Source: an uncultured Planctomycetia bacterium
GTDB lineage: Bacteria > Omnitrophota > Gorgyraeia > Gorgyraeales > Gorgyraeaceae
Assembly (NCBI GenBank): GCA_964445715.1
Contig: CAYULJ010000001.1
Span: 1 to 52,621 of the forward strand
Direction of reading: 5' to 3'
Length of the DNA: 52,621 bases
The notes beneath the pieces were generated by a model. It was not told where the DNA came from. It was given only the letters and a program-made list of their open reading frames with translations, and did not search any database. Position numbers and translations under genes: made by a program. Below are positions 1-52,559 of this stretch, one piece after another (within the stretch, counting starts at the first letter, position 1; the number at the start of each line of letters is the position of its first letter).

Positions 1-1
1 C

Positions 2-545
2 ATAAAAGATGACCTGGATAGCTATAAAGATCTATATGGCTTTGTCTCTTACCTGAAGAAAGTAAACTCTCTTGATTCTGCAAAGCTCTTTAATGAGATA
101 GAAGAACTGACTTATGAGACAAAAGACCTTATCGCGGATAATGAAAATCAAAAACTCCTCACAAAATCCTTCAGACATATAAGATTCTTGGAAAATTTCT
201 TTAATCTTAAAGTTTCAAACGAAGATTTGGATTACTATCTTAAAAATCCAGAAGACTTCAAGGTAGGCTTTTTCGAGGGTTTCTTGAAGCGCAATTTGAA
301 AGAATACAAGATAGGCTCTTTCATAGACTTTAATCCTGACCTGATAGATAAATACCTGCCAGAGCTCGAATCCTTCTACAGAATAGCCCACAAAAGAGAC
401 GTGGCAATGTTCAACAACGCCATAAAAGAAATAGAAAAGCGCAAGGTCAAGACCTCTGCCCTGATAGCAGGAGGGTTCCACACCAGAGGCATAACAGAGC
501 TTTTGAAAGAAAAAGGTTATTCCTATGCAGTTGTCTCTCCATATT
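2..545 (+). other. Domain in giant ORF: C-terminal half of a Tiki/TraB/ChaN(GumN)-like fold, cut by the window edge
   Basis: AHKRDVAMF (R-D-x-x-M, nt 386-412) is followed by LIAGGFHTRG (G-x-x-H, nt 461-490). This matches the second-half signature of the Tiki/TraB/PrgY/ChaN superfamily. The first-half motifs would lie upstream of the window. Confidence 0.4.
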
Positions 546-6500: not shown

Positions 6501-9500
6501 AACTCGTCCTCTCCAGCGCAATGCAGGTATTAGATGAGAATATCTATAGAGATATAATGACCATAGAGGAGAACAAAGGGACAGTGCGTTATGATGATTC
6601 TATAAATGACTGGGAACTGATTGGCGGCTTTGTCGATGAAAACGATAGATTTCATTATCCGGATAACTTTTTAGAATTCCTCAGGGAGGATAATATAGAC
6701 TCAGGCGCACAAGACCCTGCTACTGTGCCTGAACAGCCGGCAGTTACAGAAGAGGCGGCTGCGCAATTGTTGAGTGCGCTTCTTGAGGAAATCCATAGCG
6801 ATATGCTCGGAGGGAGAGATGCTGCATTATCTGGGTTACCTTATTCTGAAGAAGCTTATAATAACCTAAAAGATATATTGACTAGCGGAAGAGTTACGGT
6901 AGAAGACAGCACAGGGTTCTTTACGATTTTAGTCCCACAGGCTGATGGCCGCACAATAGATCGCGTAATCATAAGCAGCTCAATATTAAGTCCCGAATAC
7001 TATGCGATATTGAAAGATGCCTTGAGGCATGAACTCGTGCATTTTGCTGACAACACATTAGAGAGAAAGATGTTGTTGGCAGAGGAGTTTGGCGAGACTG
7101 TCCAGCTAGAGATCCTGAATTTGTTTTCCAGCGATGATTTTAAGCAAAACGGCTTAAATCTTTCTCAATACCTGGAACATAAACTCAGAGAAGATCCAGG
7201 GTTTGTAGAATTGATCAAACGGTTAACAGCTTTATATATACAGGATGAATACGTGGCATTTGATAGAGTACCTGGCAGTATACCTTTCGAGGTATACGCC
7301 AACTTGCTTGATCTTGACGGAGAAGGCAGGGCTACAGGGATCAGAGATGAGACGGGATTTAGATTATGGTTGTTTGAGGGCTATTTAAGAAGGCAGAATC
7401 CGCTTCTCTATATCCTGGCAGCAGAAGTAGAACGGATCGAAGGCCGCGGGATTTATCATCCAGTATATAATTGGGATAACGGGACAGCTATGCAGTATTA
7501 CCGCGTGCCTATATCCATAACAGAGACTGATGTGCAGTTTTTCGATCTTTCCTATCCGATGCTTATTCCCAGGGCATTTGCCTATGATGTAAATGGAAAT
7601 CCCAGAGCAGTGCCATCTCCTGCAGATGATATTTCTTTATACGTTACGCTGGAAGATTACAGAAGAGATTACCTCCCCTACATTATGGATCCTGGCTATT
7701 ATAGGGCAGAGACAACAGGAGGAGGCAAGATGTTTAAGATAATGCCACCTACTATTGCGCAGTATGATGCTGTCCAGGACCAGATAATAGAAGGCTTTCC
7801 AGAGGCCACCGAAGCCGACATCCGCGCCTCTATCCGCACCCAACTTCAGCCTATAGTCACAAACATCGATGACGTAGACACATATACCAGGGAATACTGG
7901 ATGGTATGGAACTCCTTTGCTCACCCATGGGTAAAGGAAGAGTTATCCAGCTTACTACTTGACTCTGGTAATAGAGGTAACCATGTCCTTGAGATAGTAG
8001 AAGCAATAGGCTTTGACCCAGAAGTAGACCAGACTGCAAAAGTCATCTGGGCTGATGATCTAAAAGATATATTCACTAATACCATCTCTGCGGATTATGT
8101 AAGGGGCACGTGGGCATTGTGGGGACTTGTACAGATAACAGGAGATGAGGCTTCAGACGCTGTAAGCGTAGAAGGCATATCCTCAGCTGTAAGAATAAAA
8201 TTAAACGAGTTGCTCGATGATCCTGCAACTGACTGGACCAGTTACCAGGCAATAATCCCTGCCTTAGACGGAGGAGAGTGGCCGGCTGATGTAAGGCTTG
8301 ACTCATTTGAGGTATTCGAAGGAGTTGTAAATAATCCAGGCGTATCTGATACTGAAAAGATAGAAATAGGAAATACAGTCCTTCGCGCGTTAGAAGCTAT
8401 CCACGCAGCAGGCAGCTACGGTATGTATGAACAATACATAATAGTAGCAGGAGCAAAGGTCCTTGCAGGAATAGGAAGGGATGAGACAATACCGGATTCA
8501 GATAAAGAAGCATTCTTTGATAGATTAAGCGCCTTACCTCTTCGTGGATTTACTGATCCTGAAAACAATGACGAGATATTCATACAAGAAGTGGATGAGG
8601 ACTTCTTGGTCATAAATCAATATTATCATATACCTGATGAGACCCTTGAAGCTTTAATGAGCCTGGACGCAGAAGCGCTGATTAATGGAGATGCCTTCAG
8701 GTCAGAAGATGACCCATTCGTAAGAGAATCTATCTATGGTAGTGAATGGGATAGGACAGTCGGCGACAGCGAGAAGCTTGCCCTATCACAGGCTGCGAGG
8801 ATTTTATTAGAAGGTTATAATCTTGAAAACTACGACACCTTGCCTCCAGAAGACCAGATCGCAATTAGAGCAGCCTTAGAGATAGCAGAAGCTGCATGCC
8901 ATGACGCAACACTCTCTATAGATGAAAAGAAGACCTGGGCAACATACCTTATAGATATATACACGAACACCTCTATACCTTATACAGTAAGGGCAAGAGC
9001 AAGCTGGGCTCCTTATGAGGTATCAAGAGACCCGCGTATAGACATTGCATCCAAGATAGATGAAATAGCCACACCTCTGATAGCATTTTTAAATCTAAAT
9101 ATAGATAACCTCACAAACTACGAGGCTGTCGCAGCATTAGACTGGGATACATACCCAGCCGGCGAGCAATTTGATTCCTTACGCATATTAAAGGAGATAG
9201 CAAGGTCCCCTGACTTTGAAACTCTTCCTGAATCAAACGTAACGCCTATAGTTGATGCTACAGTATCGGTTTTAAACAACATTAATCTGGATTCTCCTGA
9301 CGCGCACGATCTAGAGGCAATAGCGCACGGGACAGAGACATTAAACATAATCTTCTCGACTACAAACGCAATATCAGGAACCAGCATGCAAGCCGCATAT
9401 GATCTCTTGCTCAGCCTCTCGGTCAATGAGAATATCTACCACGAGATATATGTCAAGGATGTTGATGAAGACTCAAATACCGTAGAGATCTACTATAACA

Positions 9501-12500
9501 TAGCTGATGAGGTGAACAAGGCACTGGGGGTGGTGATGCAAACCCAACTCTCTCAAGGCCTCTCTGAAGCCGACATCCGCGCCTCTATCCGCACCCAACT
9601 TCAGCCTATAGTCACAAACATCGATGACGTAGACACATATACCAGGGAATACTGGATGGTATGGAACTCCTTTGCTCACCCATGGGTAAAGGAAGAGTTA
9701 TCCAGCTTACTACTTGACTCTGGTAATAGAGGTAACCATGTCCTTGAGATAGTAGAAGCAATAGGCTTTGACCCAGAAGTAGACCAGACTGCAAAAGTCA
9801 TCTGGGCTGATGATCTAAAAGATATATTCACTAATACCATCTCTGCGGATTATGTAAGGGGCACGTGGGCATTGTGGGGACTTGTACAGATAACAGGAGA
9901 TGAGGCTTCAGACGCTGTAAGCGTAGAAGGCATATCCTCAGCTGTAAGAATAAAATTAAACGAGTTGCTCGATGATCCTGCAACTGACTGGACCAGTTAC
10001 CAGGCAATAATCCCTGCCTTAGACGGAGGAGAGTGGCCGGCTGATGTAAGGCTTGACTCATTTGAGGTATTCGAAGGAGTTGTAAATAATCCAGGCGTAT
10101 CTGATACTGAAAAGATAGAAATAGGAAATACAGTCCTTCGCGCGTTAGAAGCTATCCACGCAGCAGGCAGCTACGGTATGTATGAACAATACATAATAGT
10201 AGCAGGAGCAAAGGTCCTTGCAGGAATAGGAAGGGATGAGACAATACCGGATTCAGATAAAGAAGCATTCTTTGATAGATTAAGCGCCTTACCTCTTCGT
10301 GGATTTACTGATCCTGAAAACAATGACGAGATATTCATACAAGAAGTGGATGAGGACTTCTTGGTCATAAATCAATATTATCATATACCTGATGAGACCC
10401 TTGAAGCTTTAATGAGCCTGGACGCAGAAGCGCTGATTAATGGAGATGCCTTCAGGTCAGAAGATGACCCATTCGTAAGAGAATCTATCTATGGTAGTGA
10501 ATGGGATAGGACAGTCGGCGACAGCGAGAAGCTTGCCCTATCACAGGCTGCGAGGATTTTATTAGAAGGTTATAATCTTGAAAACTACGACACCTTGCCT
10601 CCAGAAGACCAGATCGCAATTAGAGCAGCCTTAGAGATAGCAGAAGCTGCATGCCATGACGCAACACTCTCTATAGATGAAAAGAAGACCTGGGCAACAT
10701 ACCTTATAGATATATACACGAACACCTCTATACCTTATACAGTAAGGGCAAGAGCAAGCTGGGCTCCTTATGAGGTATCAAGAGACCCGCGTATAGACAT
10801 TGCATCCAAGATAGATGAAATAGCCACACCTCTGATAGCATTTTTAAATCTAAATATAGATAACCTCACAAACTACGAGGCTGTCGCAGCATTAGACTGG
10901 GATACATACCCAGCCGGCGAGCAATTTGATTCCTTACGCATATTAAAGGAGATAGCAAGGTCCCCTGACTTTGAAACTCTTCCTGAATCAAACGTAACGC
11001 CTATAGTTGATGCTACAGTATCGGTTTTAAACAACATTAATCTGGATTCTCCTGACGCGCACGATCTAGAGGCAATAGCGCACGGGACAGAGACATTAAA
11101 CATAATCTTCTCGACTACAAACGCAATATCAGGAACCAGCATGCAAGCCGCATATGATCTCTTGCTCAGCCTCTCGGTCAATGAGAATATCTACCACGAG
11201 ATATATGTCAAGGATGTTGATGAAGACTCAAATACCGTAGAGATCTACTATAACATAGCTGATGAGGTGAACAAGGCACTGGGGGTGGTGATGCAGGCTA
11301 TGGGAGCCAGTGGCATAGCTTTTGATTTAGAACCAGTTCGGGTGAGCGATTCAGAAGCAGCACAAGAGCAACCCGCAGCGCCGCAGCCAGCAGCAGCACT
11401 CCAGCAGCAACAAGATACTATAACACTGCTTCCTTATGAACCCGTTACTGATATTGGCCGAGACGGACAAGAATATATACTTAATTCAAGGTTACTATGG
11501 CAGGGAATATATGAATATGGCTATCTTGCTCACCAGGAGATAGTTGATGCAGACTGGAATTATCGTTTCGCAGAGTTAAATGGACAGCCTGTTCTCGCGC
11601 GCTGGGGTAGGCAGGATTATAATGCTGGAGCATTAGAGGTATTTAGCTGGACATATGCAGATGCTACTTTTGCCACAATCAGTATTGAAGAATTCAATAA
11701 TGATATAATCGTCCTTGATAATCAGGTGTCATTGTCCATGGATCAGCAGACTCTGTTCCTGGATACCTTGGGAGTGGGCGTAGCAGGCATCGGAGGCGGA
11801 GATATAGTCGATCTGCCATTGGAACCAGGCCCTGAGGGATTTGTTGTAGAGGGCATGCTCTATCGTCAGACCCTTGGTGGCCAGGTAGAATATGTGGATG
11901 CTGAGTTTAGATATTGGTTTGCCCAGCGCACAAGCGACAACGCTTATTTTCTCATAAGACAAGGCAGGTATTATTCGGAGCATAAAGATAAAATCGAGAT
12001 GTTTGAGATCTCGCCTGATCTTATTTCAGGAGAGACTCCGAGTTTCAACGATATGACCAGAGATGTGTTCAGGGACATTGTATCACAAGAACCAAGCGTA
12101 CCTACTACTTATGATGTTGAAGAGACAGTCTTGGTCGGCCTGGCTGAAATGCCTGCAGAAGCCCAGGTATATCCTGACGCACAAACATTCGAGTACGAAG
12201 GCCTTATAGAAGGCGTAATAAGCGGCAACAAGAAAGAGATCATGAGAGGGGATGCATTGCTGCAATATCTGGAAGGTCTGGCAATAAGTTATGAGTTGCC
12301 GTTAGAGATAAAACCATATGAGAACTATCCGGTTTTCACGAACTTCTACGAAGATGAGTCTGGGAACGCGCTTGGATATGATGTTTCAGTCTTTTTCTCT
12401 GAACTGGCGAGAGAAGGACATGAATATGACCCAGAAGCGTGGCGCCCTGCTGGCAGCACCCGGCCTCCTGATTTCACAGTTGTGCGCACTGACTTTATTG

Positions 12501-15500
12501 AAGAGCGCACAGATGAGATGAACAACGTAATATCGACTATCCAGGCCGAGATTCTTGCAGAAGCGACCAGGGATGAGTTGGCGGGTAAGACATATCCTGA
12601 GCAGCATACGACATACCAGATCCAATGGAATGATGGCCAGATCATACTTTTTGATCTTAGTTATTGGGTTGCAAACCAAACTCCCTATGCGCAGGAAGTG
12701 GCAATAATAAATCCAGTCACAGCTGAGGTTATAAAGGTAGGCCCGATCTATGGCGAGAGATTGAATTTCGCAGGTAATGTATATACCCTGCCAGAGGGTA
12801 GTTCATATGCGGATGGCGAGAATGAAGCTGGCCAGTACTTTACATGGAGGATATCAGAAGCAAGTGCAGATTCTATAACAGCAGAACTTGTGCGTGAATT
12901 TGAAGTGGCTTTATCTATAGTCCCGCAGGAAGCTCTTGATATTGCAAGCGGTTTAGGAGTTACGGTTACCAAGGCGCACACCAAGGAATACGGCACCTTG
13001 ATCCTTACTCCCGGCACAGACGGCATTTTAGGGAATGGTGATGATGTCTCTATCCCGGACTGGAAGAGAGAAGATTTCTTTATATATGGCGAGCCCGAAG
13101 AGCTTGGAAGCGGCCTGATAAAGATCGCGGCTATACCAGGAGATGATTCTATAGAGCCATACGTTGTGTATCAGGAAAGAACGGTTATAAATGGTATTGA
13201 ATATTTCACTACATATAGAGAGATGCCGGATGGGACGGGTTGGCTTGTTACGCCAGGCAGGTGGCCAGAGGCGACTATGAAGGTCGTCTTGCCGGATGGA
13301 ATGGACATCGCTCATCCAGATGTCCTCAGTGAACTGAAGAAACCAGAAAATGTAGTGGAGTATTATGGGCTTTCAAAACCAATCGGCGAAGGTGGCCTTA
13401 TGGAGATAGAGATCATAACAGGCCCGAATGACCCGAATAGATTCGAGGGTGAGAAGCGCACTATCTACCGCGATGCAGAGATGAATACATATACGCTGGC
13501 AGAGGATGGAATCGGTTGGAATGTTACACTGCGTGGTGCATTGGACGTGTCTATGTATATAGTTTTGGATGAGGGTAAAGACATCTCTGATATCACTCCA
13601 GTAGCAGGCCAGACTATTATGGATGCATTACAAGAGAATGCAGTGGAGAGACATTTGTATAATTATGACGCAGGGTATGTAGTAGATGGCAGATTACAAG
13701 TAATCGGAATTACAAAAGAAAAAAGAGACGTTCCTGCAGATCCATGGGTGGAAGATGAAGTATTTGTAATGTATAGAGACAAAGAAGATGATACTACTTA
13801 TAGACAGGAAGAAGATGGCCCTGGTTGGTATGTTACACCTAAGGGAACAGATGATGCCTCGATGTATATTGTTTTGGAAGAAGGGAAAGATATTTCTGGT
13901 ATCGCTCCAGTAGCAGGCCAGACCATTCCGGAAGCATTAGAAGAGAGTGCTATAGAGATAGACACATATAATTATGGAGCACTTGTAGCAGGAGAGAGGT
14001 TGCGAGAAATTAATGTTATAGAAAAAGAACGCAGCGCCCTTGGCGATAGCTGGCAGCGAGAGGAAAGTTTCACTATATATAGAGATGCAGATGGCGTTAC
14101 TTACAGAGAGGCAGAAGACGGTATTGGCTGGTATGTTACGCCTCGTGGCGGATTAGACGCCTTGATGTATATTGTCTTGGCTGGAGGCCAGAGCATCGTT
14201 GATATTGTCCCAGCAGCAGATCAGACTGTTCTTCTAGCGCTGGAAGAGAATGTTATAGAAAGACATTTGTATAATTATGACGGAGGATATGTTGCAGGCG
14301 GCAAGCTGCAGGTAATCGAGGTTACAATAGAAAAACTAGGTATTCCTGATGAAGCATTTACTATATATAGAGATGAGGATCGTAATACCTATAGAGAGGC
14401 AGAAGACGGCACTGGATGGTATCGCACTCCGACTAACGGACTGGTACATCAAGCAGACGCAAAGATAACCTTACCTGATGGAGTAGATATTAACGATGAA
14501 GGTGCGTTGGAAGAATTAAGGAAAGAGAGCAATCTAATAGTCAAGTATGGTTCTTGGGTGAGTTTATCCGATGAATTAGCTGTGCAGAGAAACACTTGGG
14601 GGCCTAGCGCGCCAGCAGGAAAGGCGCCTGGTGAGATTGAAGCGCTTTATAGGCTTAGCGTAATAGGCAAGTACATAACTGTAAAAAGCCCTGAGCAACA
14701 GTCGCATCAGATCAGCTCACCATATTATGGATTATGGGAGATAGTTTTATCAGGCGATGACCCATTCGAATATACCTCATATTTTATCCCGGCTTCGAAT
14801 GTGGATATAGAAGCGATAACTGATTTTAAGGCGTTGTTTATGGCCATGGATGATTACGCCGAGAAGCGCATGGAATGGATAAATGGCGAAATTACAGACG
14901 ATGAGATTCTCGCTGCGTTTGACTTGTTTAAAGAGACATTGCTGGATATAGGAGGGATTACATTCCCGGCAGATTTTGACAATGTAGCTGATGTTGCTGA
15001 AGACAGCAGATTAGTGCCGCGGGTAGGCAAAAAGGAAATTACAAGTATCACAGAAGGCGTTATCCCCTCCAGGGAAGAGCCAGAACCAGAACCTCAGGAA
15101 GTTATTGAACCTATTACAATTGACGAGGCCATCGGAGTAGCAAGGCAGACTCTGGGTATCACGCTCGCTCTTGACCAGGCAAAGGAAGAAGATGGATGGC
15201 TTGTATGGGATTTTCCCAGGACTTTTAGAAAGGATATTGAACTTAGGCTTAGCCTTAACTCCTCTGATGATGGGATTATTTATGGTCAATTAATTACATG
15301 GGATTATTTGCATCAAAACAGTAAAATGTTGGTGGCCCAGATTCGGCCGGATGGGGTTATGTATATTGATGCTGGAATATCGTGGATGCCGGCATATACA
15401 TTAGGCATTATGACAGCCCTTGATGTCCAGCAGGATGATATTTCAGATACGGGTTGGGATATCAGGTATGACGCTTTTTCTGACGAGCTTAGATGGCTTC

Positions 15501-18500
15501 ATGGGATAGGTGAAGTTGTGTCTGTGACTCAGGATGTTTTCGACGGGCCTTATGAGCTCCATTTAACTACGCGCTGGTTCAAAGAAGCTACTATTACGAT
15601 GGACAATGACCCTCGCATAGCAGGTTTTATACCTATAATATATGCGCTCCGGGACCATGGCGTAGAAGAAGCTACCCTGGCTCTAGAGGAAGGGGAAGGC
15701 AGTATTAAAGTAGATCAAGGTGGGACCTTGACCATACAAGGCGGCAATGTCATTAAAATTGCGCCGACTGAGAACGAAGGCGAGTATCTAGCTACTGTAA
15801 ACGATAGAGAGTATAAGGTTATAGTAGAAGGCGACGGCACAATCACAATCGAGGGAGAAGCGGCTATAGAAGAAGGCGCGTTTATGCCAGACTCTTTCGG
15901 AGTAGGTCTTGGCGCAGGCCTGAATTTTACCCTGCCGGCCTTTTTAGGATTTATTGAGTTGCTGCAGGATGTATTGCAGCCAGAAGAGCCGGAATATATA
16001 CCGCTGACAGGTTTTATAGAGAATCCGTCAGCCTCGGATGAATTCTTTCTTGATCTGCGCTTTCTGGACCTGGGCATTCCACAAAATGATGACGGAAGCT
16101 ATGATTTAAGTCAATATGATCTTGTTATAACATTCGAAGGGGGGTCGGGCAGGAAGGTGCAGTTTTTCTATAAGGATATTGACTGGGGGAATCTTTATTC
16201 ATCCAGAAAACAAATTAGAAGCGGAGAACCTCTTATATTTAATACAGAATCTGATTTTACAGAGGTAAGAGGAGCGGATCTCACGCATGTAGCTGCAGTT
16301 GGCGCAAAGCTATTCGGTAATCTAGGCCTGAGGGGTGTGACTATTGAGAATGCCGGGTTAATGCTTAGGAGGATCGATGATGAGGTTCCGGTAGAAGATG
16401 TGTCAGAACCGGATATAAATATAGGAGATTTTATTAGTGAGCATCCATTGTATACAGCAGGCAGTGCTGCTCTGGGAGTCCTTGCTGGCATTGGCGCAGG
16501 GATCGGTGCCGCAGCCCTGTTTACTTCAGCGCCTATATGGGTGCCTGTTGCTGCAGGAATACTTGTGGGCGCAGGAGTTATTGCCGGCAGTTATCTTATA
16601 GGTCAGGCGATATTCAAAGCAGAAGACCTGGAACCAGAGGGGGCTACATTCAAAGTACAACCAAGACTTGTCATTGCGAGGAGCGTAAGCGATGAAGCAA
16701 TCTCTTCTTCTGTCCTGGCAATGTCAGGAGCAGGGATTTTTGCAGGAGCAGGTTTTACTGAAACGCTCGCAGGCGCATATGATATAGTGAGCGGCTATAT
16801 CTTCTCCAAGCCTCAAGAGGAACCAGAGCCTCCTACAGGCACTCATGATATCCCGTTGGATGGTTGGCGTATTGGAAATCCTGGCTTTGGGACAGCTATT
16901 ACTAATGTAGCGCGTGAAGGCGATACACTCCGTCTGACAGTGGCGAGGTCTTCTGATAAGAAAGGTGAGATCTGGATACCGGCTGATATATTATGGGAGG
17001 CCATGGGAATTGAAGGGCCAGTGGATCTAAGTGGGATAGAAGTGAATATGGATGTTCAATCTCAAGGCTCAGGACAGTATGGGCTGCAGGTAGCGTTTCA
17101 CAATGGAACCCTTGGATTTAAAGCGCATAACTATTTTGGGTGGCAGGTTACAGGAGGCAATCAGGAAAGCGTATGGAGAGGATACGAAGATCTCCGCGAT
17201 TGGGTGGATCTTTCTACCTATGATCCTGACAATGTAACATATTTATCCATCAAAGTCGATAACACCAAGGGCTTTACAGGAGACATTGTGCTGAGTAATC
17301 TTCAGATTACATTCCCGGAGGAAGGGATTGCGCTGCCAGAGCTGGAACCGCGTCTCACTGACACAGAGGTTATAGATCCGTTTGAAGGAGAACTCTCTCA
17401 AAATATAGGTGTAAATTTAGGCAATACAGGTGGCCACGATATAGGTATTTGGTCCGGGACACATGAGGGCTTCTCTTCGACAACTGGTGAGGCTAGATTG
17501 CGTAATTTGGTCGCAGATCTTCCGGAGGGCACTGCGGTGCGTGTGTTCTTAAGTCTGGATGGCAGGGCGCGATTTGTAAACGCAGACGGACAATTGACAG
17601 ATGTTGCCCGAGCTGACTTAGATACATTAATACAAGTCTTTCGGGACAATAATTTAAAATTGATCCCTGTTTTGATGAGTTTTGATGTTGCAAATAGTAG
17701 CGGAGTAGCAGACCATCCTGAATGGTTTGAAGATCAAAAAGAGCGCCAAAATATGATAGCTAATTATGCTAAGATGGTAGAATACTTGGCTAATCTGGAT
17801 CCTCAGCATGAAGTAATCGCGGCATGGGAGCTTATTAACGAGCCTGAAGGCATGAAGGTGAATCCGCAAGACATAGCTGTTACGCTTATTGAGCTTACCA
17901 ATATGATCCGCGAGATCGATCCTGAGATACCTATAACAGTAGGTATGCGCAATGTAGCTACGTTATTGCAGGAAGGCTCGGTGCTTACTGAAACTGTATT
18001 AACTGTGTCTGACTTCCTGCAGGTGCATCATTACGAAAATCCGAGTGAACTGCGATCCTATGATTTAGGAGAAGAAATTGGTTTCCCTGAGAGAGATACA
18101 TGGATAGAACGATTGACTGCTTTGGCAGAGGCGCATTCAACATTGCGGATTTATGTCGGGGAGTTGGATCCCTGGATCTCTCCAGAAGAGGTAGCCCATG
18201 TTCTGGAGATGGCAGGAGTGGATGGCGTGGCTGTCTGGGGACTGCATAGCTTCGCGGAGGGAGACGGACGCTATTCGCAGCGTCTTGCTGAGCGCGGAGG
18301 CTTTATTGGTTGGCAACAAGAGGTTCTGCAAGGGCTGTCCGAAGCCGAACAAGTTATTCCAGTTGAAGAAGAGATCCTTTCTCCTCCTATTAGTGTACTA
18401 CCCGAGCTTAAGATAGACAGTAATTTCCGGCTTATGAAAGGAGAAGAAATAGGCATTGTCTCTTTATCCAGCGAAGAGGACTATTTTATAACAGATGAAT

Positions 18501-21500
18501 ACGGGAATATATACTCACCCAGAGGGAATTACATCGATGTTATAAGTCCACGTGACGAGCGAATTTCTCTGACCTATATTTTCGAAGATGCAATAGATGT
18601 CGAGGGACTTGCCCTTTCAGAGCTCGGAGATATTATAAGCGATAACATAGGATACTTTATTTACGCCTATGATAGATCAGCTGTGCTTCCCGAGGGAACT
18701 GTCGTAGTTACAAGGATAGAGTATGATGTCGAGGGCGACCAGGTTGGTGAATCTACATGGTATCTTTTCAGCAAAGATTTATTAGGTCAGTTTGAACGAA
18801 GAGCGGAAGAATTCTTTGGTCAGGATTTAGACATTAATAATCCTGAGCACGAAAACATGCTCAATGCATTTACGGCATTCGCTATCAATGTAGGCGATGA
18901 GCGTTTGAGCACCGCCTTGACAAGTGCCCGAATTCTAAGGCCGTTCTTTAACGAAATCTGGAGCGCTAGCTTAGAAGGCTTTGATTTTGGTGATGAAGAT
19001 AGACTTTCCACGCTGTTTTACTGGACAACAGAATTGGCCTTTGACAAGGATGTTGCGCGTGAGCCAGAGGAAATCGAGGCGATCCTTGTCCGCGCTAGAG
19101 AGCTAAGGCCTATTATTGTCGAGCGTCTATCAGGGTTATGTAATGAGTATGGCCTTGATAAAGCAATAGACGCGATCGAACAGCTTGATACATCAACGCA
19201 TGCTGGCAAATATGCTTTTTCATTGATCATGTACCACGCTTCTAATGAGACCGAGATCAACACAATACTCACTAGCAACATAGAAAGGCTGCTTGCCCTA
19301 AAGTCTATAGTAAGTCCAGAAGACTATGAGACCATAGAAGCGCAGGAGCTTGACAGAATCACGCAGGAAAATATAGATGGGCTTACGCAGGAGGTAGGCA
19401 GGTTTAGTGGACCGCTTAGTGTGACTGAGACATTCGAAGGATTTGTCTATGGAGAAGTCAATAATCTCCAAAAGGCTGTTAGTGAAGGGGGTCTTACTGA
19501 TCCTGTTACGATAGAAACGTGGCAGAAAGTTATCTACGCATACATTCAGGCATATACTGTTGTCTCTAGAAGTAAATCTATGGGGCAGGAATTTACAGGG
19601 AGCCCTGAAAGACTTATAAGCGGAGTCCTTTCTATCCTTGAGAATACACAGGTATCTGGCGAACCACATAATCTCATGACCCTTACGAATTTAATCTTTG
19701 AAGGCAGAGACATCGAAGGCGTATCTTTTGAAGATCTGATAGAGCTAGATGCAGATAATCCTGTTTGGATATATGAGTTTGATGAGCCTATGGACTTAAG
19801 CGGAGCAGGTTTAGTCCTGCCGATGAGGATTGAAAATCAGGGCTCAGCCTATGCACGCATAACTGTATTTGACGAGACAGGAGGCGTTGCCTACGCAGAT
19901 GTGTTCCAGATCCTTCCCGCAGGTTCTAAACTGCCTGAAACTGCAGAAGAGGTGTATTTCAGGTTTTTTGCACCTAGCGCAAGCGGGTTAAATGCATTGG
20001 CAGCTCGCATACAGATAGAGGTATTGGACGGGTATGCGGATGTGATTGATGAACAGACTAACTTTGCGCAATTAGAGTATATCCAGGGGTGGATTTCGAA
20101 TAATTCTGACATAACCCTTGCAACCGTAGTTCCATTAGGACAGATCCGGCCAACAATAGAAGTCGCAGGAGAGGGTTTCAGGAGAGACCTTGACGGAGAT
20201 GGCGCCTTAGAAGACTGGTTTATCATAGGAGGCAACTGGAGGCCGCTTGGCTATGGGAATATTTCCGAAGTCGTAGATTATGAGGATATTATTGATGATG
20301 CAATAGCTGAAAAGGCGCAGGACGGCTACAGCGTACTCAGGGTAGGATTATTAGATGACGGCCGGGCTTTTTTTGACGGCGACAGGGACAAGATCATAGA
20401 GAGCGCTCTCTCGCTTTTAAGGCTGGCTAACAAGAACGGCGTAATGATAGAGTTTACACTCGCAGATTTTCTTATGTTCGCAGAGCATCCAGAGGCTATA
20501 AGCAATGCTGAAGTAAGTGACTTTTTAGAGGAATTACTTGAGAGGATAAATAAAGACCCAGAGGCAAAAGCAGCCTTGTTTGGATTTGACCTCTTAAATG
20601 AACCAGAGTGGCTTATAGATGATGAGGATTCAATAATAGTAAATGATGAAGACGGAATAATAACACAGGAAGAAATCGAAGTCTATGTAACGAATAACTC
20701 AGCTGTTATTAGAAGCTTAATACCCGAGGCATTCGTAACTGTAGGCATATCAGCGGATAAAGCGGATCTCTTGAATAATGTGCAGAATCTCCTTGATTAT
20801 AACGCAGTGCAATACTACGCCTATATGGGTGATTTCTCCGGACTTATAGGTGCCCTTCCGCAGGATAAACCATGGATCTTAGAAGAGTATCCTACAAGAG
20901 ATGAAGGTCGTCCTATTGATCCTTCATTCTATCTTGATATGGTCAGAGACACTAGTGGTGCAGGCGCATTTGTATGGCAATTGGAGCCGGCACGCAGGCC
21001 TTTAACCCCGGATACCAGAGTAATGATACAGAACTTCCGTCTCCGTGAAGTTGACCGGGTTGAAGGAGTGATACAGGATGAATTTAATATTTCTCTGAAT
21101 AGAGATCTACAGATCAATGATACCCCAGAGCTATTGACTCATGACCCAGGCTACGGCCGATTATTCTATAGGCTGAATAAAGAAGGAGAACTAGTTAATC
21201 TGATAGATAGGCTTCTTAATATCACAGGCATTGCGCCGAGGCAGGCTGATTTAACAGAGCCTTTAGAGATATACTTGATAGACGAATGGGGCAAAGAGCA
21301 TCTTATAGGAAAAGCAGAAGCTAACCCTGACGGCACTTTCTCTCTCGAAGATACGCAAACATGGCTTGCAGATTCAAGGATCCAGAATATCCAGATGATA
21401 GAGCTCAGGTTTACCTATAAATCTGTAATGCCATCAGCCTGGTGGGCTTATGGGTCTATCTTTACAGCTTTCATTATAAATCTCATCGGTACCTTTCTAA

Positions 21501-27500: not shown

Positions 27501-30500
27501 GGGATTACCTGCTCTCGGCAGATGTGTCTTCGGTTCTTGTAAATATGAAGGCACCGTTCCCATGGCTTATGACTGGTGCATTGTCGTTGGTAGCTGTGGC
27601 TGGAGCTATCTGGGCTATTCGAGCATTGCGAACTCGTCGTGAAAAGCCAACTACAAGCCATGTCTCTGTCCGAGGCTCATTAGTAGCTGGGGCAGTTTCC
27701 AGTGTAGGCGTCCTTGCAACAGCCAGTGCAGCTATAATAGGGCTGCCTGTTGTGTTGGTAATCGGTCTTGGTGCAATATTAGGACTGCCATCATTTGCTG
27801 CAGCGTTGTTCTACTCTGCTCAAGGCATATTGATATTTATTGCAAGGCATGGTCTAATAAGAGGGCCTGACAGGTTGAGCGAGAGATTTAGCAGTGTCTC
27901 CTATCGCCTCGATCCTACCTCAAAAGACCCTGCCTATGTAAGAAATAACATCCTCTATATAAATGAAGACATAATGAAACTCCTCCCAATCTGGCTGCAG
28001 GAATCTATATTAGGACATGAGCTTGATCACCTTACGGGAAAAGGTGAGGTAGGTGCTTATATCGGACAAGTATTGAGATTACTTCGCACCTTTAGCGCTC
28101 GCAATGACAAGGAATATATCCTTAATTTAACCCAAGGGAATCTCAGAAATCATACTAGGAGAGTCGCGCAGATAGCGGTTTTACTCGGTCGCCATATGGG
28201 GTTGTCGCGGGAAGAGATCAATGTCATTGAATATCTTGCATTGGTCCATGATTTAGGTGCTTCTCAGGATGTATTTACGCCAGAAGAACTCGATGCGCTG
28301 AAGAAAAAACTTGAAACTCTTGGAATACCCCATGAGGATTACAAAGGTTTTGCGCCTCGGGGCCGATATGAAGAATTTAGAACCCGAGTAAGTGACTTAC
28401 CCGAAGGCACTTTCACAGATAAAGAACAGAGGAATATAATAGGCAGGTTCTATCCTGCAGATAGCACTTTGGCTTTCCTCCGCGAACATGGCCTTCCTGT
28501 AACTCCTGAAGCAGAGCTTATAGTTGGATATCATCATATGTACGATAGGCTTTCACAAGATCCAAGGCTAACGCCTACGAACACTGGATTTGTAAAAATG
28601 GCCCTAGCTATTCTTATTACTGCTGATGTATTTGAAAATGGTAACAATGTGGTTAAGAGAACAACCTGGTTTGACAAGGGGCCTGAATCCCCTGAAGAAA
28701 CACTCGAATTCCTAGAGCAGACATATGCTCAACAAGGGATAGAAGATAGACGTTCCCTGGAGGCATTAAACCAATTAATCGCAGCAGAAAATGAAGAACT
28801 GTTTGATATCGTCCGTGATGCAAGAGATCTTTCTTTGCCAGGCCGACAGGTCAAATATCCTGCTCTTCGAGCCACGCTTACGCGTCCGACAACGCAGGTA
28901 ACATTTGTCATTGAGCTGGCAGATGGTTCTCGCAGGTATTTTTCCCAACGCATAGATCCCGTCATTCTAGATAACGATGAGTCTTTCCAGAGAGCAGTCG
29001 CGGATCTATCCAGAGAATTACAGAGTATTCTTTGGGGCATAGGAGGAGAAAGGGTATGGGTATATTCTTCCAGCAACGCGCCTCAGATAGTTGGACTTAT
29101 AGACGGAGTCATAGGAGAATTCTCTCCTGGTGGCCGCCACCATGATGTAGTCAAGGCGCTTTCCTGGATGTATGGCCGTGAGCGTAAAGACATTACCTTT
29201 CATGTAGATAAGCCTTCCAGAAGACAGACACGTTTCTTTAGAATAGAAAGAGTTATTAATTTCTTAAAGAGGGCTTTCCGCAGGATATTCAGTTTTTATA
29301 TAAGGCGTAAAGAGACAGAAGAGCTTGAAAAACTTTCTAAGGCAAGAGATGTAAGGAACAATATCTCTTCTATAGACGTAGGAGGTTCTGATATAAAGAT
29401 AGCCGCCTATAATAATAGAGGGGAACTAGTGTTCCTGAAGATACATAAAGGAGGCTGGAAGCCTCATACATTTACTCGCGCAGCACAGCATGAAAAAGTA
29501 GTTTTGTCGCTTTTGAGATTGACCCGGCTTGCTATAAGTTTATCCCTTATTCCAGAATCAGAGAGGGATAATGACGTGGATGTTATTATGGCCAGACTGA
29601 AAGAAATAGAGCGCGATAGCAGTGTCGATATAGTAAGTGAAAGCGGTATAAAAAATTTCGTAGAAAGCGCTGAAGAGATCTTGGCTCAGAGAATGGCGCG
29701 CTTGGACGCTATATCTATAAGCTGGCCTGACGTAGTTGTAGATGGACTAGCTGTAGGCGGAGATACATCAAAGACCAGAAATCTTTCCGGACGCAGAGAC
29801 GAAAGGACTAGTCGACCAAAAGACATATATCTCGACGATGAATATTGGGATGAATTCGAAAAACTCATGCCGCTTGCCCAGACCGTATCTCAAAACTTTG
29901 AGAATATACCTGTAACGATACTCAATGATGGCCGCGTAGGTCCTTTTGGAGCAGGAGTTATACTGGGTAGATCAGATATATTAGGCATTGCCCTGGGCAC
30001 AAGCGTTGGTTCTGGAATTTTCACTATAAAAGAATTACCCGATTCCCCTACATATATAGGCCGTATGGATCTACCAGAAGCACCTGTGCCTGACGATGTC
30101 TGGCCGACCGGGCCGATAAGACCTGCTGCGCTTTACATCTCGCAGAAAGGAGTAGCGCGCCTAGCGCCCAGTAAAGGTATTGACCTGGATAGATTTGGAA
30201 ACGATAACCGGGCCAAACTGGAATACGTGCAAGGGTTGGTTGATGAGAACCATCAAGGGGCAATTGAGATATTCGAGCAGATGGGCGAATGGTTGGCAGA
30301 TACAGTGACAAGGGCGCGTTATTACTGGAGTGAAGACGGCATAAAGACTGTTGTGCTATTTGGAAAGGTTACGCAGGGCGCATCAGGAAGGATTATGAGA
30401 GATGTTGCTCAGGGAATAGTAGCCTCCCATGGCATAGAACTCCTTTTCGCCTTTGATCTTACTGATGACAGCGTGGCGAAAAATCTGTCTCATCTGCGTC

Positions 30501-36500: not shown

Positions 36501-39500
36501 CTACTTCCACTGATATAACATTAATAATGCCTGATGGGAGCACTATCGAGAAAGATAGGGCTATCCTAAATATATTCTCCCAAGATCATATTCGGGTAGA
36601 ATTTTATGGCGATGAAGTGATGAGCGGTAATGATAAATCTGTAACAGATCTTAAAGCAAGATCTCCAGAACTCGATCTAGAAGTGGTAAGCGTAGATAAA
36701 GGCTTGAACGAAGGAGATATTATTAAATTAGAGCAGAGAGGCGTGAAGCTGGTAAGAGATGAAGATGGCAATGTTATCTCTGGGCATGAGGCTGTTGCAT
36801 ATCAGCTGGATAGAGAACTCGAGATCTTAGTTGGAGAGTTTGATGAGGAGAATATTCTTAAGAGGATATATAAGCGTCAGGAAAAAGAGAAATCAAGTCG
36901 TATCAATGCAATGATAGATACTGGCGTTACTACATCAGGCGCACCTGGTGACCCAGTGATCGGCGTAAGGTTTAAGCTAGACCATGAAAATGGAGAGATT
37001 AAAGATAAGAGGTTAGAGCTCCATCCATTGTTAGAAGAAAGACTTTCGCAGATAGAAGACAACGAGAATTATAGAATTATACTAACCGCTTTGCTGCTGA
37101 AAGAATTGGGTCATTTTGATGAGTGGAATTATGCAGACTTACTTCCGTTGGCATTCCTGACCCAACAATATATAACTAATCCGGATGATCCAGAGATTGC
37201 AAGAAGATTAGCTGAGCTGCAGCTTGCCTTTGAGGCCCCGAAATATCAAATCCTATATGACTATTTAGTTCAGAATCTTGGTGCAGGTGAGCATGCCCGC
37301 GCAATTCAAGTCTTGACTGAAATGATTGAAGCAGAGACTGACGAATTCTTGCAAGACATGCTCAAAGGCCTCAGGACTTTCATGCTAAATGTCGGAGAAC
37401 AGGGCATAAAGAAAGCCGCGGCTTATGACCTTAGTCAGGGCATTGGTCCGATTGCAAAAGCAATAGAGATGAGTCTGGATAAACTCAATGATGAATTAGT
37501 AGATAGAGCCGTAGATGAAGCGATAGTGCCTGAGCAGTCCACAGACGAAGTCCTGCTCGGCGCGACTGTGCCGATTATCAGACGAGCACATCGCGCTAAA
37601 CTTGCCTTGCTATTAATAAGCGCTTTTGGATTAACCCAGATATCCGCAAGCCCGATGAGCCCAGGGATCCTGACTGATTGGTTGCCTTACATAGGTGGCT
37701 TGGTAGCTCTTGGAATACTAATTGTGAGATTTGGGATTTTACAAGTTGGCAGAGTGAAATTAAAAAATCAAATTAATGGAGATATACAGATTCTTAAAAG
37801 CCATCATGCCAAAAAAGGATATGCTAAGCGCGGAGTTGCTGCTGCAAAGGGAGCAAGCGAGACAGAATCATGGAGAGTTACTCAAGTCGATAGAGCCCGA
37901 AGAGAGGCCAGAAGCTTGCGAGAACAAGCTCTTAGCTCAGAAGGTGATGCTGTATGGGACGGGAAGCAATGGCTTCCTCTTGTTGGCTCGGAGCAGAAAC
38001 AACAAGACTTGCTAACACGAGCTGAAGAGGCATATTGGACGGCAGAGGGTAAAGGCCTGAGACACGGACAGAGAATACATGAACTAGAAAAAATAATTAA
38101 AGAACGGGAGAGAGAATTAAAACAGACTTTGTCAGATTTAAATAGAGCACGCATACGCCTAAAGATAGATCTAAAGCGTTTAAAGAAAGAACATAATCAT
38201 CTAAAGATAGCTTTAATATCTATTAAGGATATGATTATAGGCATGATCCCAGTCTCGGGCATTCTTGTAGCAATCGGATGGGCTGTAAATTTCTTAAACA
38301 ATCGCCTAAATGTAATTAAAAGATCTTCTGATGTACTAATTAAAGCGACCCAGACACCTGAGGTAATAGCTCCTGTAACTCATGTAACTCAAATCCCAGA
38401 TTGGGCTGTAATTCCTATTATAATTGGTGTTGTAGTTGTTGGTGCTGCACTTGCTGTTGGAATTCCTGTTGGGGCAAGCCTTATTGGTGACAAAATCCAT
38501 GGATCTTCTGATAAAGACAATAAAGAAGGCAAAGACATTTCTTCTTCTGATACCTTGAAGTCTCTCGGCATAACTGCTTTAATTACTGCAACAACAGTTA
38601 CAGCAAGCTGCCTGACCCGCTCAATGCCTGTATTTGCCGCAGGCCTTGTTCTTCTTCTGCCTCTATACATGTTCACAAACCTTTTCTTAAAACTCAAGAG
38701 GACAGAGGAAAGACTTGCCTCCCAGGAGACAAGGGCAGGTCCATATGAAGCCACAGGGCTATTCGAAAATAATGCAACCGCTGACAATAACTTAACCCAC
38801 CTTGCAACTACGATAGATGATATAATTTACTACCACCCGATAGAAATCACAAACTACCACCCAATAGAGCAATACCAGATATTCATACATGAATTGACGC
38901 ACCGGGTATTTGGAGCTAATGAAGGAATCGCATATTTTGTGCAGGGTGTAGCAGGTACACTTGTCTTGGTCCCGTTCGAGCTAATCCTACGTACAATAGG
39001 AACAGGTAGAAATCTCATACAGCGAATAGGAAATTACGGCAGGACTGTCCTTAGATTAGTTTCCACAGGAAATCTTTCCCAAAATCTTTTTTTTGACTTA
39101 CTTAAGAAAGCGTTTTCAAAAGTCCGAGGCCTTGCTCCCGAAGAGGAGCTAGAACTGCATTTGCAAAACTTGCGTGATAAAAATGCATGGGTACGAAGCA
39201 CTGCAGTAAAGGTATTAAGAGAGACTAAAGACCGCCGGGTCATTGATGGAATATTGGAAATCGTAGAGGATGAGGATGAGAATATAGAAATACGTTCTGA
39301 AGCAGCAACGCTCCTGGGAGAGATCAGGAATCGTCGACCGGTAGATGGATTAGTAGAACTTTTACTGGATAGCGCTAAAGAGGAAAAGCTGCTTTCTAAA
39401 AAGCCAGTTCCCAGGGAAGATATAGATCTGGCAATAGCATTAAAAAATATGCGCTGTGCTATAGCAGAGGCCTTAGGAAAAATTGGAGGCCGTAGTGCGA

Positions 39501-42500: not shown

Positions 42501-45500
42501 CGCACGCAGACTATTATATGTCGAGGATGCGATTTGCAGACGAGGACGGAAAGCCGACTCTGGATTATAGAGGCAATCCTATTGTGAATTATCAGGGAAA
42601 TCCTCTTACGCTTGAGATAATGCCTGCTTTAGAGAGGCATCAGTGGGATGTAAGAAGGCAGATAGCCAGATTATATCCTATACGAGAAAGGGATTTGGAT
42701 GAAAAGACAAAAGGCGGAAGATTTAGATATGCTATTTTCGATAATATTACAGGCAGGTGGAAAGGCCAGGCCAAAGGCGATAAAGAGGATACCCGTTACC
42801 TATGGTCTGAGATCAATCTTGATGTATTGGATGGGACTGCGGATAGTCATCTTTTCGGGCCAAGACTTAATCAAGATGCAAATCTGTTAATACTTCGGGA
42901 GCATTTAACATACTTTGAGCCGCGCAATGAAGCTGCAGGCTTGCCTGTTAAGGTCCGTTATCTATACAGAGAGCCTGTTAGCGCTACAATTGTAGACGAA
43001 GACGACAAGGTTGTTTATAAGGAAGGCACGCCATGGTCAAGGAAAATCAGATTTGGTAAATTAAGCAAAAAACCTGAATCCTACCGTCCAGCCGATGCCA
43101 ATGACCGGAAACTCCTTGTTGATGCTTGTGAGGCAATATTAGATTTTAATATGTTAGTTGCGCTCGAAAAATTGGACACATTCTGGCAGAGAAAAATTCC
43201 AGATGAAAATCACGGACTGGCAGAGAAGTTGGCAGAAGCAGTTAAATTTAAGATAAATAGTAATGATGCAGGAACGGATGTGGCTGATTTAATTGAAGCG
43301 TGGGAAAATAACAGAATAGGCCATAGTTATGAAGACGTTGTGGATAAAATTCTTTTTTATAAATCAGGACAGGGAGAAGTTAGAAAATTAGAAGGCAGCA
43401 TGTTCTTATACCTTTTTGTCGTATGGGCAAGGGCTTTACAGGGACAGGCAGATTTTGGATACAGGCAAGAAGATATTCATAGAGCATTTAAAAGAGCCTT
43501 GATTTATACTTATACGAGCTCACATGAATTGAATCAGGCTAGAGAAAGCGGATTGGTCGATCTTGATTTTGCGCTGTTAAGGTTATTTCTAGGCCCTCCT
43601 CAGCTTAATCCGAGAGAAAAAGAAACGCTGACTCGTATACCTCAACTGTTATTAGAAAAAGGTGTTAATGAGGCTCTTAATGCGAGATATTATATTAGTG
43701 CCATAAAAAAGCTGGGAGGGCGTCCCGTGAGAGACGAAGGTTACGCTGCTAAGCTCGAACAGTGCCTCTATGTTGTTGGGATAGCTGGCAAAGTAGGCCT
43801 TATCAAAAAAGCCGATGTCAGGTTGCTGAAAACTATTGTAAATGGATCCAGGATTCTTAGTTATAAGATTCAAGGTTTATCAAATAGAGAGATCGGTCGT
43901 AAGCTTTCTATGGGTCGCTCTGTAGTCAGTAGAACTTATAATAGATTCAGAGAACTCATTGGCCTGGGTCATATGTTAGAAGGTCTAATTCGCAGTCAAA
44001 GTCTAGATCTTGAAATGCACCTTGAAGCTGCGGAGATAGCTAAAAAGAGAGACCTTATGGAAGACGATCTTAGTTCAGTTAGAGAAAGGCTCTCGGCCCT
44101 TAAAGAAGCAACTAGCAATATCTCCTCCTCTGATACCAAAATAGCCAGTATAGCCGCTACCCTGATATCTATCTCGACAATAACAGCAGGATACCTGACC
44201 CGCTCTGTGCCTCTATTGGCTATAGGCCTTGTGCTTCTTCTGCCTGCAGCCATGTTCATCTGGTTTTTCTTTAAACTCAGAGCAACTGAGACTAGGCTCG
44301 CCTCTGGTGAAATCAGGGCAGGCCCGTACGAACCCATAGGACTTTTCCAAAACAACGCAAGCCCTGACGAAGACCTACGTTACCTTGCAACTACTATAGA
44401 CGGGATCATCTACTACCATCCAATTGAGCTTACAAATTACCACCCGATAGAACAATACCTTATATATATACATGAATGGGCGCATAAGAAATTTGCCTGC
44501 ACAGGATTTAAGATGTTGGATGAATTCCTTGCGTATGGCTTTCAGTGGTTGTGCATAGTGGCCGTACCGGTTGCACTAGTTCTTTTATTACAACAGTCCG
44601 GGCAAGGCTTGTCTAGAAACACCCTCACTGTGCCCCGTACGCAAATCGTAGATTTCGTACGGGGCGTGGCTGGTGGGGCTTCTGGCTTTGCCTGGGCTGA
44701 GCTATTGGGATTTATAGGTATGTGTGCGATGGGAAAAGGACCTAGGCAATTGAACATGTTCGGTGACCAGGGCGATGATTCAGGGCCTGACAGCGATGAA
44801 TCAGATGATTCACAATCTGAATACAATGAGATAAAAGAAAGAATTTTGGAAGCTCTAGCTAGTCTAATAGAATCTGCCAATGCTGAAGCTGTGAAATGGA
44901 CAAAAGAGTTAGAAAGTTTACCAAAAGGCCATACGTCAACATATACTTACTTAGGCGAGATAAGCCGTCAGGAAGCGATTGCCAGAAAAGCTCAAGAGGC
45001 AAAGGATGCCTTGGAGAATAAAGGCGCAAAAGGCCTCATCAGGTATCTGAATAAAAAAGACCGCAGCCGGACGATAAGAGATAGAGGTCGAGGGGTGTCG
45101 CCTTATACTAAGGCGAAGAGTGATATTAGGCAAGCCATACTGGAAGATGCTCAAGAGCTACGCAGTAAAGAGATAAAGCTAGAAGGAAGTTCACGAGGAC
45201 AAGGCCTTGTATTATTTAATATTATCTTTGCTGTAGTCCTAGGGTTAGCCGCGTTGTTATTTGGAGATTTTCTTATAGACCTGATTTTTACAGGAGCGTG
45301 GGATACGCCAGCAGTTCCTAAGGTGTTACTGGCCAGTTCTCTTGGCGGTTTTGGCCTGTTGCAGAAAGCCCTTGGGATTATTGATGGCACCCAAATATAC
45401 GAAGATATTCGAGAAGAATATGGCACTGAATTAAGTGAAGCGCAGGAAAGGATTGCGTTCTGGAGAGACAAGATATCCGAAGTCGCTCCAGATGATAGCG

Positions 45501-52169: not shown

Positions 52170-52559
52170 GTGAATAAGATCAAATATGGCGTCAAAAATG
52201 TTGCTCAGGTTGTATCGGGTTTTGGCGAAGTTTACCCTTGCGTATGCACAGATGATGGGATCTTGTTTGCGGATAAGATAGATGCACTGAATAAAAAAGA
52301 GAGGGCGAGGCATATCTATGACGTTATCTTTATGCTTTCTAACAAATATCCTATAGATAGAGTTTTTTTGAAACGTCTTGGCATAAAGAAAGAGCCTTTC
52401 GAGGTTATTTCTGATAGGATAAAAAGCTTTTCAAAAAAGGATTTGAGAAAACAGGACGAGACATTAAGGCCTTTTCTCTTTGATGAGAGCGAAGCGGATC
52501 TAGTAGCAAATGCTGATGAAGTAATACCGAAATTATTGGAAAGATATATGGAGTCTTAA
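52170..52559 (+). CDS. Small ORF (129 aa), possible C-terminal remnant of an AbiEii/DUF1814-like nucleotidyltransferase toxin
   Basis: GTG at 52170 is preceded by AAGGA (52159-52163) with a 6-nt spacer; TAA at 52557-52559. KIDALNKKERARHIYDVIFML resembles the conserved C-terminal K..AL..R...RD.YD motif of AbiEii-type proteins. The N-terminal nucleotidyltransferase half is absent. The family call is from motif memory only. Confidence 0.5.
   Translation: MNKIKYGVKNVAQVVSGFGEVYPCVCTDDGILFADKIDALNKKERARHIYDVIFMLSNKYPIDRVFLKRLGIKKEPFEVISDRIKSFSKKDLRKQDETLRPFLFDESEADLVANADEVIPKLLERYMES

Follow-up and report, generated by a model that had tools for sequence, protein, structure and literature searches.

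Minigluzincins are free-standing, soluble, archaeal metallopeptidases (selecase MJ1213, PDB 4qhf-4qhj; abylysin/jannalysin) that were reportedly proposed, by Lopez-Pelegrin et al. in 2013, as soluble models of M48/M56 catalytic domains. Another minimal zincin is the PVC-metallopeptidase, or DUF4157, which carries the signature HExxHxxQ ... E on a plan of three strands and three helices, with the His residues on helix 2 and the Glu on helix 3 (PMC3482391). This domain is the predicted releasing peptidase of polymorphic toxins and is found in very large multidomain proteins, where autoproteolysis has been proposed (PMC3482391), and Wss1 is known to cleave itself upon activation (PMC4559962). For the giant proteins of the Omnitrophota, which exceed 10,000 amino acids (aa) and have many transmembrane (TM) helices, C39 and S8 peptidase domains have been proposed to carry out cleavage (bioRxiv 10.1101/2023.11.21.568195). 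HExxH or metalloprotease modules are mentioned neither in that study nor in a second one on giant proteins (bioRxiv 10.64898/2026.06.07.730766). Here we describe a 52,621-nucleotide (nt) stretch of DNA (NCBI GenBank assembly GCA_964445715.1, contig CAYULJ010000001.1, positions 1 to 52,621 of the forward strand; hereafter the window) from an uncultured Planctomycetia bacterium that GTDB places in the Omnitrophota (Gorgyraeaceae). A single open reading frame (ORF) of 17,305 aa nearly fills the window, and inside it lie four HExxH motifs and one KELGH sequence, which we refer to as m1 (HELVH), m2 (HELDH), m3 (HELTH), m4 (HEWAH), and m5 (KELGH). Our analysis suggests that m2, m3, and m4 form a small, new family of modules that resemble minimal gluzincins and that they are probably zinc hydrolases.

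All five peptides, reported in a first-pass annotation of the window, were recovered at the same positions in the translation of the ORF (Table 1). That annotation had cautioned that several HExxH pentamers would be expected by chance in 17,000 aa, which proved wrong for this protein; because His makes up only 1.55% of its residues, its composition predicts 0.35 HExxH, and 4 are observed. Shuffles that preserved local composition (n = 5000) gave a mean of 0.34, with P = 0.0046 for at least three occurrences and P = 0 for at least four. As m3 and m4 are paralogues (see below), the four motifs count as three independent events, and the excess is real at that number also (P ~0.005). Eleven control patterns that likewise combine two His with an acidic residue (HExH, HExxxH, HExxxxH, HxExH, HxxEH, HxEH, HxxxEH, HDxxH, EHxxH, HxxHE, and HxxHD) occur no more than once each in the giant protein, and Glu occupies the second position in four of its seven HxxxH pentamers.

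Two of the modules, m3 and m4, are 52% identical over ~170 aa, and the H, E, and H of the motif as well as a Glu downstream of it are kept across a 6-residue indel. The two units behave as a portable module, since the ~170-aa stretch has been duplicated as a discrete block and the sequences that flank it show no similarity. Directly before the HExxH helix both copies also carry a doubled "YHPIE" (YHPIExTNYHPIEQY; 38843-38884 in m3 and 44426-44467 in m4), whose extra His and Glu residues might serve in metal binding or regulation. We also asked whether the five sites might all derive from a single repeat, but rejected this: when the whole protein was compared with itself by BLAST and scanned with hidden Markov models (HMMs), only m3 and m4 found each other, and an HMM that combined m2, m3, and m4 returned no further copies. 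To look for relatives elsewhere, the five modules were concatenated and compared exhaustively with 1.84 billion cluster representatives using phmmer, which gave eight matches. None of these fell to m3 or m4 at E < 1e-3, and the m3/m4 alignment found no related loci in genome and metagenome contigs.

Two of the phmmer matches are relatives of m2, namely P0002 (HEKTH) and P0007 (HEISH). Both keep the HExxH, an ExxAY downstream of it, the preceding TM helices, and the RGPD linker. By BLAST of the m2 unit, P0002 is 51% identical over aa 9157-9298, with the preceding helices included, and P0007 is 32% identical. In the three-sequence alignment H79, E80, H83, E89, A92, and Y93 are invariant at an overall identity of 39-53%. 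An HD domain follows immediately downstream of the m2 unit, and one could therefore ask if HELDH is simply a piece of it. We rejected this candidate because neither P0002 nor P0007 has an HD domain. A word-index search of proteins with the m3 module, the m2 alignment, or P0002 returned no new homologues (P0002 found only itself), in a search that also missed the known relatives. On its 4.1-kb contig P0002 has a frame that stays open up to the upstream edge, so that it represents the C-terminal part of some longer protein; its m2-like and m5-like modules are separated by only ~170 aa, compared with ~3000 aa in the giant ORF.

The clearest feature common to m2, m3, and m4, judging by sequence, appears to be an ExxAYxxQ that follows the HExxH. 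The pattern HExxH-x(5-12)-ExxAY is present in m2, m3, m4, P0002, and P0007 and nowhere else in the giant protein, and a Q stands three residues past the AY in four of these five (m2, m3, m4, and P0002), the position being a P in P0007. ExxAYxxQ itself occurs three times in the giant protein, each time downstream of an HExxH, and the probability that an ExxAY starts by chance inside an 18-residue window is 0.004 per module. It had been claimed earlier that the four intact motifs stand in similar short contexts; this is only partly true, in that m2, m3, and m4 share the HExxH-x5-12-ExxAY arrangement, but m1, which lacks ExxAY, and m5 fall outside it.

Structure prediction offers a view of how these conserved residues might be arranged. 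AlphaFold2 (AF2), run on the m2 alignment, gave a best model with a mean predicted local distance difference test (pLDDT) score of 67, with core residues 30-90 at 82-90. The model consists of a hairpin (strands 51-54 and 57-60), a short helix, a helix at 70-85 that holds H79, E80, and H83, and a further helix at 90-107, with E89 just before the latter and the HExxH residues at pLDDT 82-88. In the low-confidence m3 model the elements follow in the same order and with the same lengths at aligned positions, and its helix 114-130 holds the HELTH residues 123-127. According to these models the apolar stretch before the motif, which had been described as beta-like, is instead the first half of the predicted active-site helix, and the strand lies 17-18 residues upstream. 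The first-pass annotation had suggested looking for a third zinc ligand downstream in structure models. In m2, m3, and m4 there is a candidate, a Glu 5-12 residues past the HExxH that is conserved in all five family members and is predicted to stand at the start of the next helix; m1 has no equivalent. In m3 and m4 the helix that opens at this Glu runs on as a hydrophobic helix.

Searches with the m2 model and profile point towards the same small group of enzymes. Foldseek against PDB placed selecase first (4qhj, E = 0.083, prob 0.60, TMq 0.36) and second (4qhi, E = 0.17), and the zincin PprI/IrrE at ranks 3 and 4, while the m2 profile, run with hmmsearch on the full set of PDB sequences, gave selecase MJ1213 as the sole match (E = 0.1). 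The profile alignment with selecase covers the strand and two helices, the short one and the one with HExxH ("ilyINkeImkyiP..ksILdHELsHl"). The two selecase results are only partly independent, as Foldseek also scores amino acid similarity. In BFVD, a library of viral structures, the named top matches of the m2 model were mostly SprT-like, IrrE, or "metallopeptidase", all at E > 0.4. These fold matches of m2 are mutually consistent, and none of them is statistically significant. PHROGs contained nothing informative for the five modules or for the HExxH modules of their relatives, and sequence searches of PDB gave nothing useful for m1, m3/m4, the m2 and HD region taken together, or the m5 family.

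The data show an excess of the motif, the paralogy of m3 and m4, conservation in relatives, and a predicted secondary structure; zinc binding, catalysis, the membrane side, and the substrate are what we infer. Each module would begin with a two-stranded hairpin and a short helix, followed by the HExxH helix with two zinc ligands and the catalytic Glu, and then by a helix that opens with the conserved Glu of ExxAYxxQ, the likely third zinc ligand. The sites had been described as often lying next to TM segments, and this is true of m2, m3, and m4, each of which stands 59-68 residues past a hydrophobic membrane hairpin, but not of m1 (~400 aa away) or m5 (~190 aa). The active sites would lie at the cytoplasmic face of the membrane, because Arg and Lys abound in the loops after the hairpins and the domains next to the modules are of cytoplasmic type (HD after m2, HEAT after m3). 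We lean towards regarding m2, m3, and m4 as one small module family of ~60-100 residues, outside Pfam and NCBIfam, with a minimal-gluzincin architecture and with membrane-proximal, zinc-dependent peptide hydrolysis as its most likely activity.

Table 1. Features of the giant ORF and HExxH sites in its relatives. Nucleotide positions are those of the window; aa positions refer to the giant protein or, for P-numbered entries, to the relative.
Feature	Window position	Strand	Protein position (aa)	Basis or remark
Giant ORF, 17,305 aa	188..52105	+		holds all five motif sites
m1	6947..7123	+	2254-2312	orphan HExxH
m1 HELVH	7028-7042	+	2281	
m2 unit: hydrophobic helices, RGPD linker, minimal zincin-like core (aa 9245-9305)	27656..28102	+	9157-9305	BLAST, alignment, AF2
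m2 HELDH: two putative zinc-binding His and putative catalytic Glu	28016..28030	+	9277	model helix 70-85
m2 EVGAY: candidate third zinc ligand (Glu), start of next helix	28046..28060	+		alignment, signature, AF2
HD		+	9321-9361	Pfam
HD-domain core, directly after m2	28148..28270	+		context, outside the module; no counterpart in m2 relatives
CofD		+	11508-11703	Pfam
m5 domain, [KQ][ED]xxH ... YYEAxxY	36944..37477	+	12253-12430	separate conserved family
m5 KELGH	37100-37114	+	12305	
m3 unit: hydrophobic hairpin, 68-aa loop, strand pair, HELTH helix, EGIAY helix	38534..39046	+	12783-12953	m4 paralogue
m3 HELTH	38888..38902	+	12901	
m3 EGIAY, then FVQ	38921..38935	+		signature
HEAT		+	~13087-13162	Pfam
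LMWPc		+	13731-13854	Pfam
m4 unit, m3 paralogue	44117..44611	+	14644-14808	self-comparison
m4 HEWAH	44471..44485	+	14762	
m4 EFLAY, then GFQ	44522..44536	+		kept despite 6-residue insertion relative to m3
PGI/SIS		+	16137-16365	Pfam
HExxH in P0003			1033	
HExxH in P0004			3888	
HExxH in P0005			461	
HExxH in P0006			459	
HExxH in P0007			689	

In their predicted plan the modules resemble minigluzincins, in which ~100 residues form a small beta-sheet, a helix with the HExxH, and a next helix that gives the third ligand, and selecase is the top, though sub-threshold, match for m2 by both structure and sequence profile. They differ from these archaeal enzymes in being apparently tethered to the membrane, in occurring three times in one 17,305-aa chain, and in their own ExxAYxxQ. 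Placement at the membrane, flanked by TM segments, of a catalytic domain built on HExxH and a Glu is also seen in M48 (HtpX, Ste24, Oma1) and M56 (BlaR1). Unlike members of those families, however, the modules have no match to PF01435 or PF05569, their HExxH and Glu stand much closer together (5-12 residues), and their domain is far smaller. With SprT/Wss1 (WLM) and IrrE/PprI (M78) they share a small HExxH domain and a strand-helix layout, but all of those matches had E > 0.4, and these proteins, in contrast to what is predicted for m2 to m4, use His as the third ligand or serve in DNA repair or repressor cleavage. The resemblance to DUF4157 that had been suggested earlier was not borne out at the level of sequence, as there was no PF13699 match at E ≤ 10 and the Q of the signature is replaced by G in m2, F in m3, F in m4, and D in m1. 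DUF4157 does share with the modules a minimal zincin plan and a place within a very large protein, and it serves as a working analogy for the idea of self-processing, but the modules occur outside any toxin, Rhs, or secretion setting, and they sit inside the chain, linked to TM segments, instead of preceding a cargo at its N-terminal side. The giant Omnitrophota proteins for which cleavage has been proposed resemble this one in having embedded peptidase-like domains and many TM helices; their peptidases are of the Cys and Ser classes, and those suggested here would be of the metallo class.

A number of results weigh against assigning m2, m3, and m4 to the zincins. Only one of the five AF2 models of m2 was reasonably confident (67, with the other four at 41-54), the m3 model had low confidence (pLDDT 48.6), and Foldseek returned only meaningless matches for it. 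The best PDB matches of m2, to selecase, were below threshold (E ~0.08-0.1), and neither Pfam nor NCBIfam gave a zincin match at E ≤ 10 for any of the five modules or for the modules of their relatives. The m2 alignment is thin, with only three sequences, and the ExxAYxxQ signature is post hoc, having been set after both families had been seen. Outside the pentamer, the likeness between the m2 family and m3/m4 is also marginal. With the pentamer masked, Smith-Waterman scores of the flanks, compared with those of random window pairs, were ordinary for all pairs of sites but m3-m4. Scoring the m2-family HMM on random windows of the same protein that carried an implanted HExxH gave P = 0.02 for m3, 0.05 for m1, 0.32 for m4, and 0.54 for m5, and hhalign aligned the m2 family in register with m3/m4 over 49 columns (P = 0.023) and with m1 over 21 columns (P = 0.026). 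One could thus argue that the motifs are chance pentamers together with one internal duplication, and that no zincin domain is present; such a view would draw on the lack of any significant profile or structure match, on the masked flank similarity, which is not significant, and on m1, which has no homologues. We consider it very improbable. Three independent events are observed where 0.35 are expected (P ~0.005), H, E, H, and E are invariant among the m2 relatives at 39-53% identity, ExxAY co-occurs at P ~0.004 per module, and the structure and sequence searches, which are not fully independent, both rank the same minimal metallopeptidase first.

Given a real zincin-like fold, the modules might still bind a metal without being peptidases, and act as another metal-dependent hydrolase or as metal sites with a structural or regulatory role at the membrane. 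Not every minimal HExxH domain is a protease, DUF45/YgjP being annotated as a nucleotide pyrophosphatase, and m2 stands directly before an HD phosphohydrolase domain, with no peptidase family model matching any of the modules. However, all five family members retain the general base, which is the Glu of HExxH, the predicted upstream strand pair corresponds to strands that bind the substrate backbone in zincins, and the m2 relatives lack the HD domain, so that we regard a role other than peptide hydrolysis as improbable. If the modules are peptidases, as we favour, the question becomes what they cut. The first-pass annotation had proposed a self-processing polyprotein, and the leading single candidate for their role, which we put forward tentatively, is a limited cleavage of the very chain that carries them, either in cis or between copies. 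A more specific scheme, in which this mini-gluzincin family acts in cis on the 1.9-MDa precursor, at the cytoplasmic side of the membrane, and its cuts free or activate the HD, HEAT/LMWPc, and PGI blocks, seems unlikely as a whole. It is also possible that the modules are real zincin-fold proteases that do not process their own chain, and that they are membrane-tethered housekeeping or offensive proteases, for example in HtpX/Oma1-like quality control of membrane proteins, in clearing stalled translocation intermediates of the giant protein, or acting on other substrates. The structure and conservation of m2 to m4 serve this possibility just as well. The ORF combines enzyme domains of unrelated kinds (HD, CofD, LMWPc, PGI, and GH5-like) in a mosaic where a protease could be one more tool, an HExxH module occurs together with phosphoribosyl pyrophosphate (PRPP) synthetase domains in the relative P0003, and the layout of a TM hairpin followed by a catalytic domain recalls the M48 quality-control proteases. 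On the other hand, three copies of one module in a chain are easier to motivate if each of them acts locally. The observations reported here fit both self-processing and tethered quality-control or trans proteolysis.

The remaining two sites differ from this family. The region around m1 has a zincin-like look, with an RVIIS strand 17 aa upstream of the motif, and there is no TM helix nearby. No homologue was found at E < 1e-3 among the cluster representatives searched with phmmer. It may be an unrelated minimal zincin or a chance motif, and taken on its own it could just as well be a chance pentamer as not. A kinship with the second HExxH module of P0007 was considered and rejected, there being no similarity between them. 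We also set aside an assignment of the region after m1 as a glutathione S-transferase (GST; 3ay8, E = 0.0056), since a single one of the many GSTs in PDB was matched, Pfam GST_N gave no match, and the Pro and Ser positions of GSTs are lost.

The m5 site had been read as a degenerate copy of HExxH. It turned out to belong to a separate conserved domain, the relatives of which (six phmmer matches and a second stretch of P0002, for 8 members when this protein is counted) are fragments of giant proteins. The first-His position is K in six of the eight and Q in the other two, and His in none, whereas all keep the second His as well as a YYEAxxY further downstream. Judged by these conserved residues, the domain lacks the first zinc ligand and is not a zincin. 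Because K or Q stands at this position throughout the family, m5 is not a decayed copy within this protein. The invariant residues of the domain are P, K, H, L, Y, E, and Y, with the YYEAxxY ~40 aa past the [KQ][ED]xxH, and the domain had no match in Pfam or PDB. A weak, in-register hhalign match to the m2 family (P = 0.041) suggests that its kinship with zincins, if any, is remote.

The relatives come from short fragments of contigs, which makes their gene-split boundaries uninformative, and HExxH modules are frequent among them. Eight related fragments carry 7 HExxH, including the two of m2 type, compared with ~0.25 expected, and small HExxH modules thus recur as a component of this class of proteins. 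The fragments found through m5 hold further module types, namely HEIGHLxD (P0004, P0005, and P0006), HELTH (P0003), and HEYIH...EEGVTE (P0007). The last of these, the second module of P0007, was the only module, in the giant ORF or among the relatives, to receive a peptidase name (M85, E = 0.11). We do not claim these relatives as SecA-bearing "archaeovorins", as Pfam found no SecA_DEAD in P0008, P0006, P0003, or P0005.

The reading frame of the giant ORF is open from the first base of the window to the listed TTG start (window 1-187), with no in-frame stop. Because of this the gene may begin upstream, outside the window, and 17,305 aa may be an underestimate. Pfam domains in this frame are scattered and confined to the C-terminal half, where HD, CofD, HEAT, LMWPc, and PGI/SIS were identified. 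As a multi-enzyme, HEAT-scaffolded protein with multiple TM segments, it resembles the class described as a "multi-enzyme metabolic cluster" (bioRxiv 10.64898/2026.06.07.730766). A hydropathy scan of the ORF found 51 windows over the threshold, many of which overlap, so that the distinct hydrophobic segments are fewer; they are concentrated at aa 7089-9218, around 12494-12934, and at 14652-15307. A region at window 17540-17965 is similar to GH5 cellulases, with a Pfam match to PF00150 (E = 1.3e-4, 22 bits) that just misses the cut-off of 23.5, and a GH5-type "NEP" motif occurs three times in the N-terminal 7000 aa, which are otherwise dark to Pfam (NEPE at 5156-5173, 17831-17848, and 20591-20608). 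This suggests that the N-terminal half may hold extracytoplasmic glycosidase-like domains, in contrast to the cytoplasm-type enzymes of the C-terminal half.

Several other parts of the ORF are duplicated. A 1755-nt unit is repeated in tandem at window 7772-11320, with an exact repeat of 7811-8110 at 9566-9865; the copies agree at 100% of nucleotides for at least 300 nt and, as protein, are 94-98% identical across ~600 aa (aa 2529-3126 and 3117-3711). They represent either an in-frame duplication of very recent date or an artefact of the assembly. Older internal duplications relate 3392-3769 to 15950-16327 (aa 1069-1194 and 5255-5380; 54% identity) and 13133-13681 to 13730-14293 (aa 4316-4498 and 4515-4702; 43% identity), and two SIS/PGI-like copies lie at 48674-49519 and 49832-50740 (aa 16163-16444 and 16549-16851; 24% identity). 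An ORF of 129 aa (window 52170-52559) follows on the same strand (+), 65 nt 3' of the stop of the giant gene.

It is an open question whether bacterial proteins of 10,000-150,000 residues act whole or are cut (bioRxiv 10.1101/2023.11.21.568195), and the only possible cutters proposed to date are C39 and S8 domains. The idea that embedded peptidases cut giant bacterial proteins is thus already published, and what would be new here is a small family within a known superfamily. At ~100 residues the module is expressible and has a single-residue knockout in the Glu of HExxH, which gives a handle on the processing of giant proteins, and a TM hairpin followed by HExxH-x5-12-ExxAYxxQ provides a signature with which the new long-read collections of giant proteins can be searched. 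Should the modules be ordinary tethered proteases, they would be a modest addition to the zincin superfamily. If they do cut their own chain in cis, the giant gene would encode a genuine bacterial polyprotein that matures through metalloprotease modules of its own.

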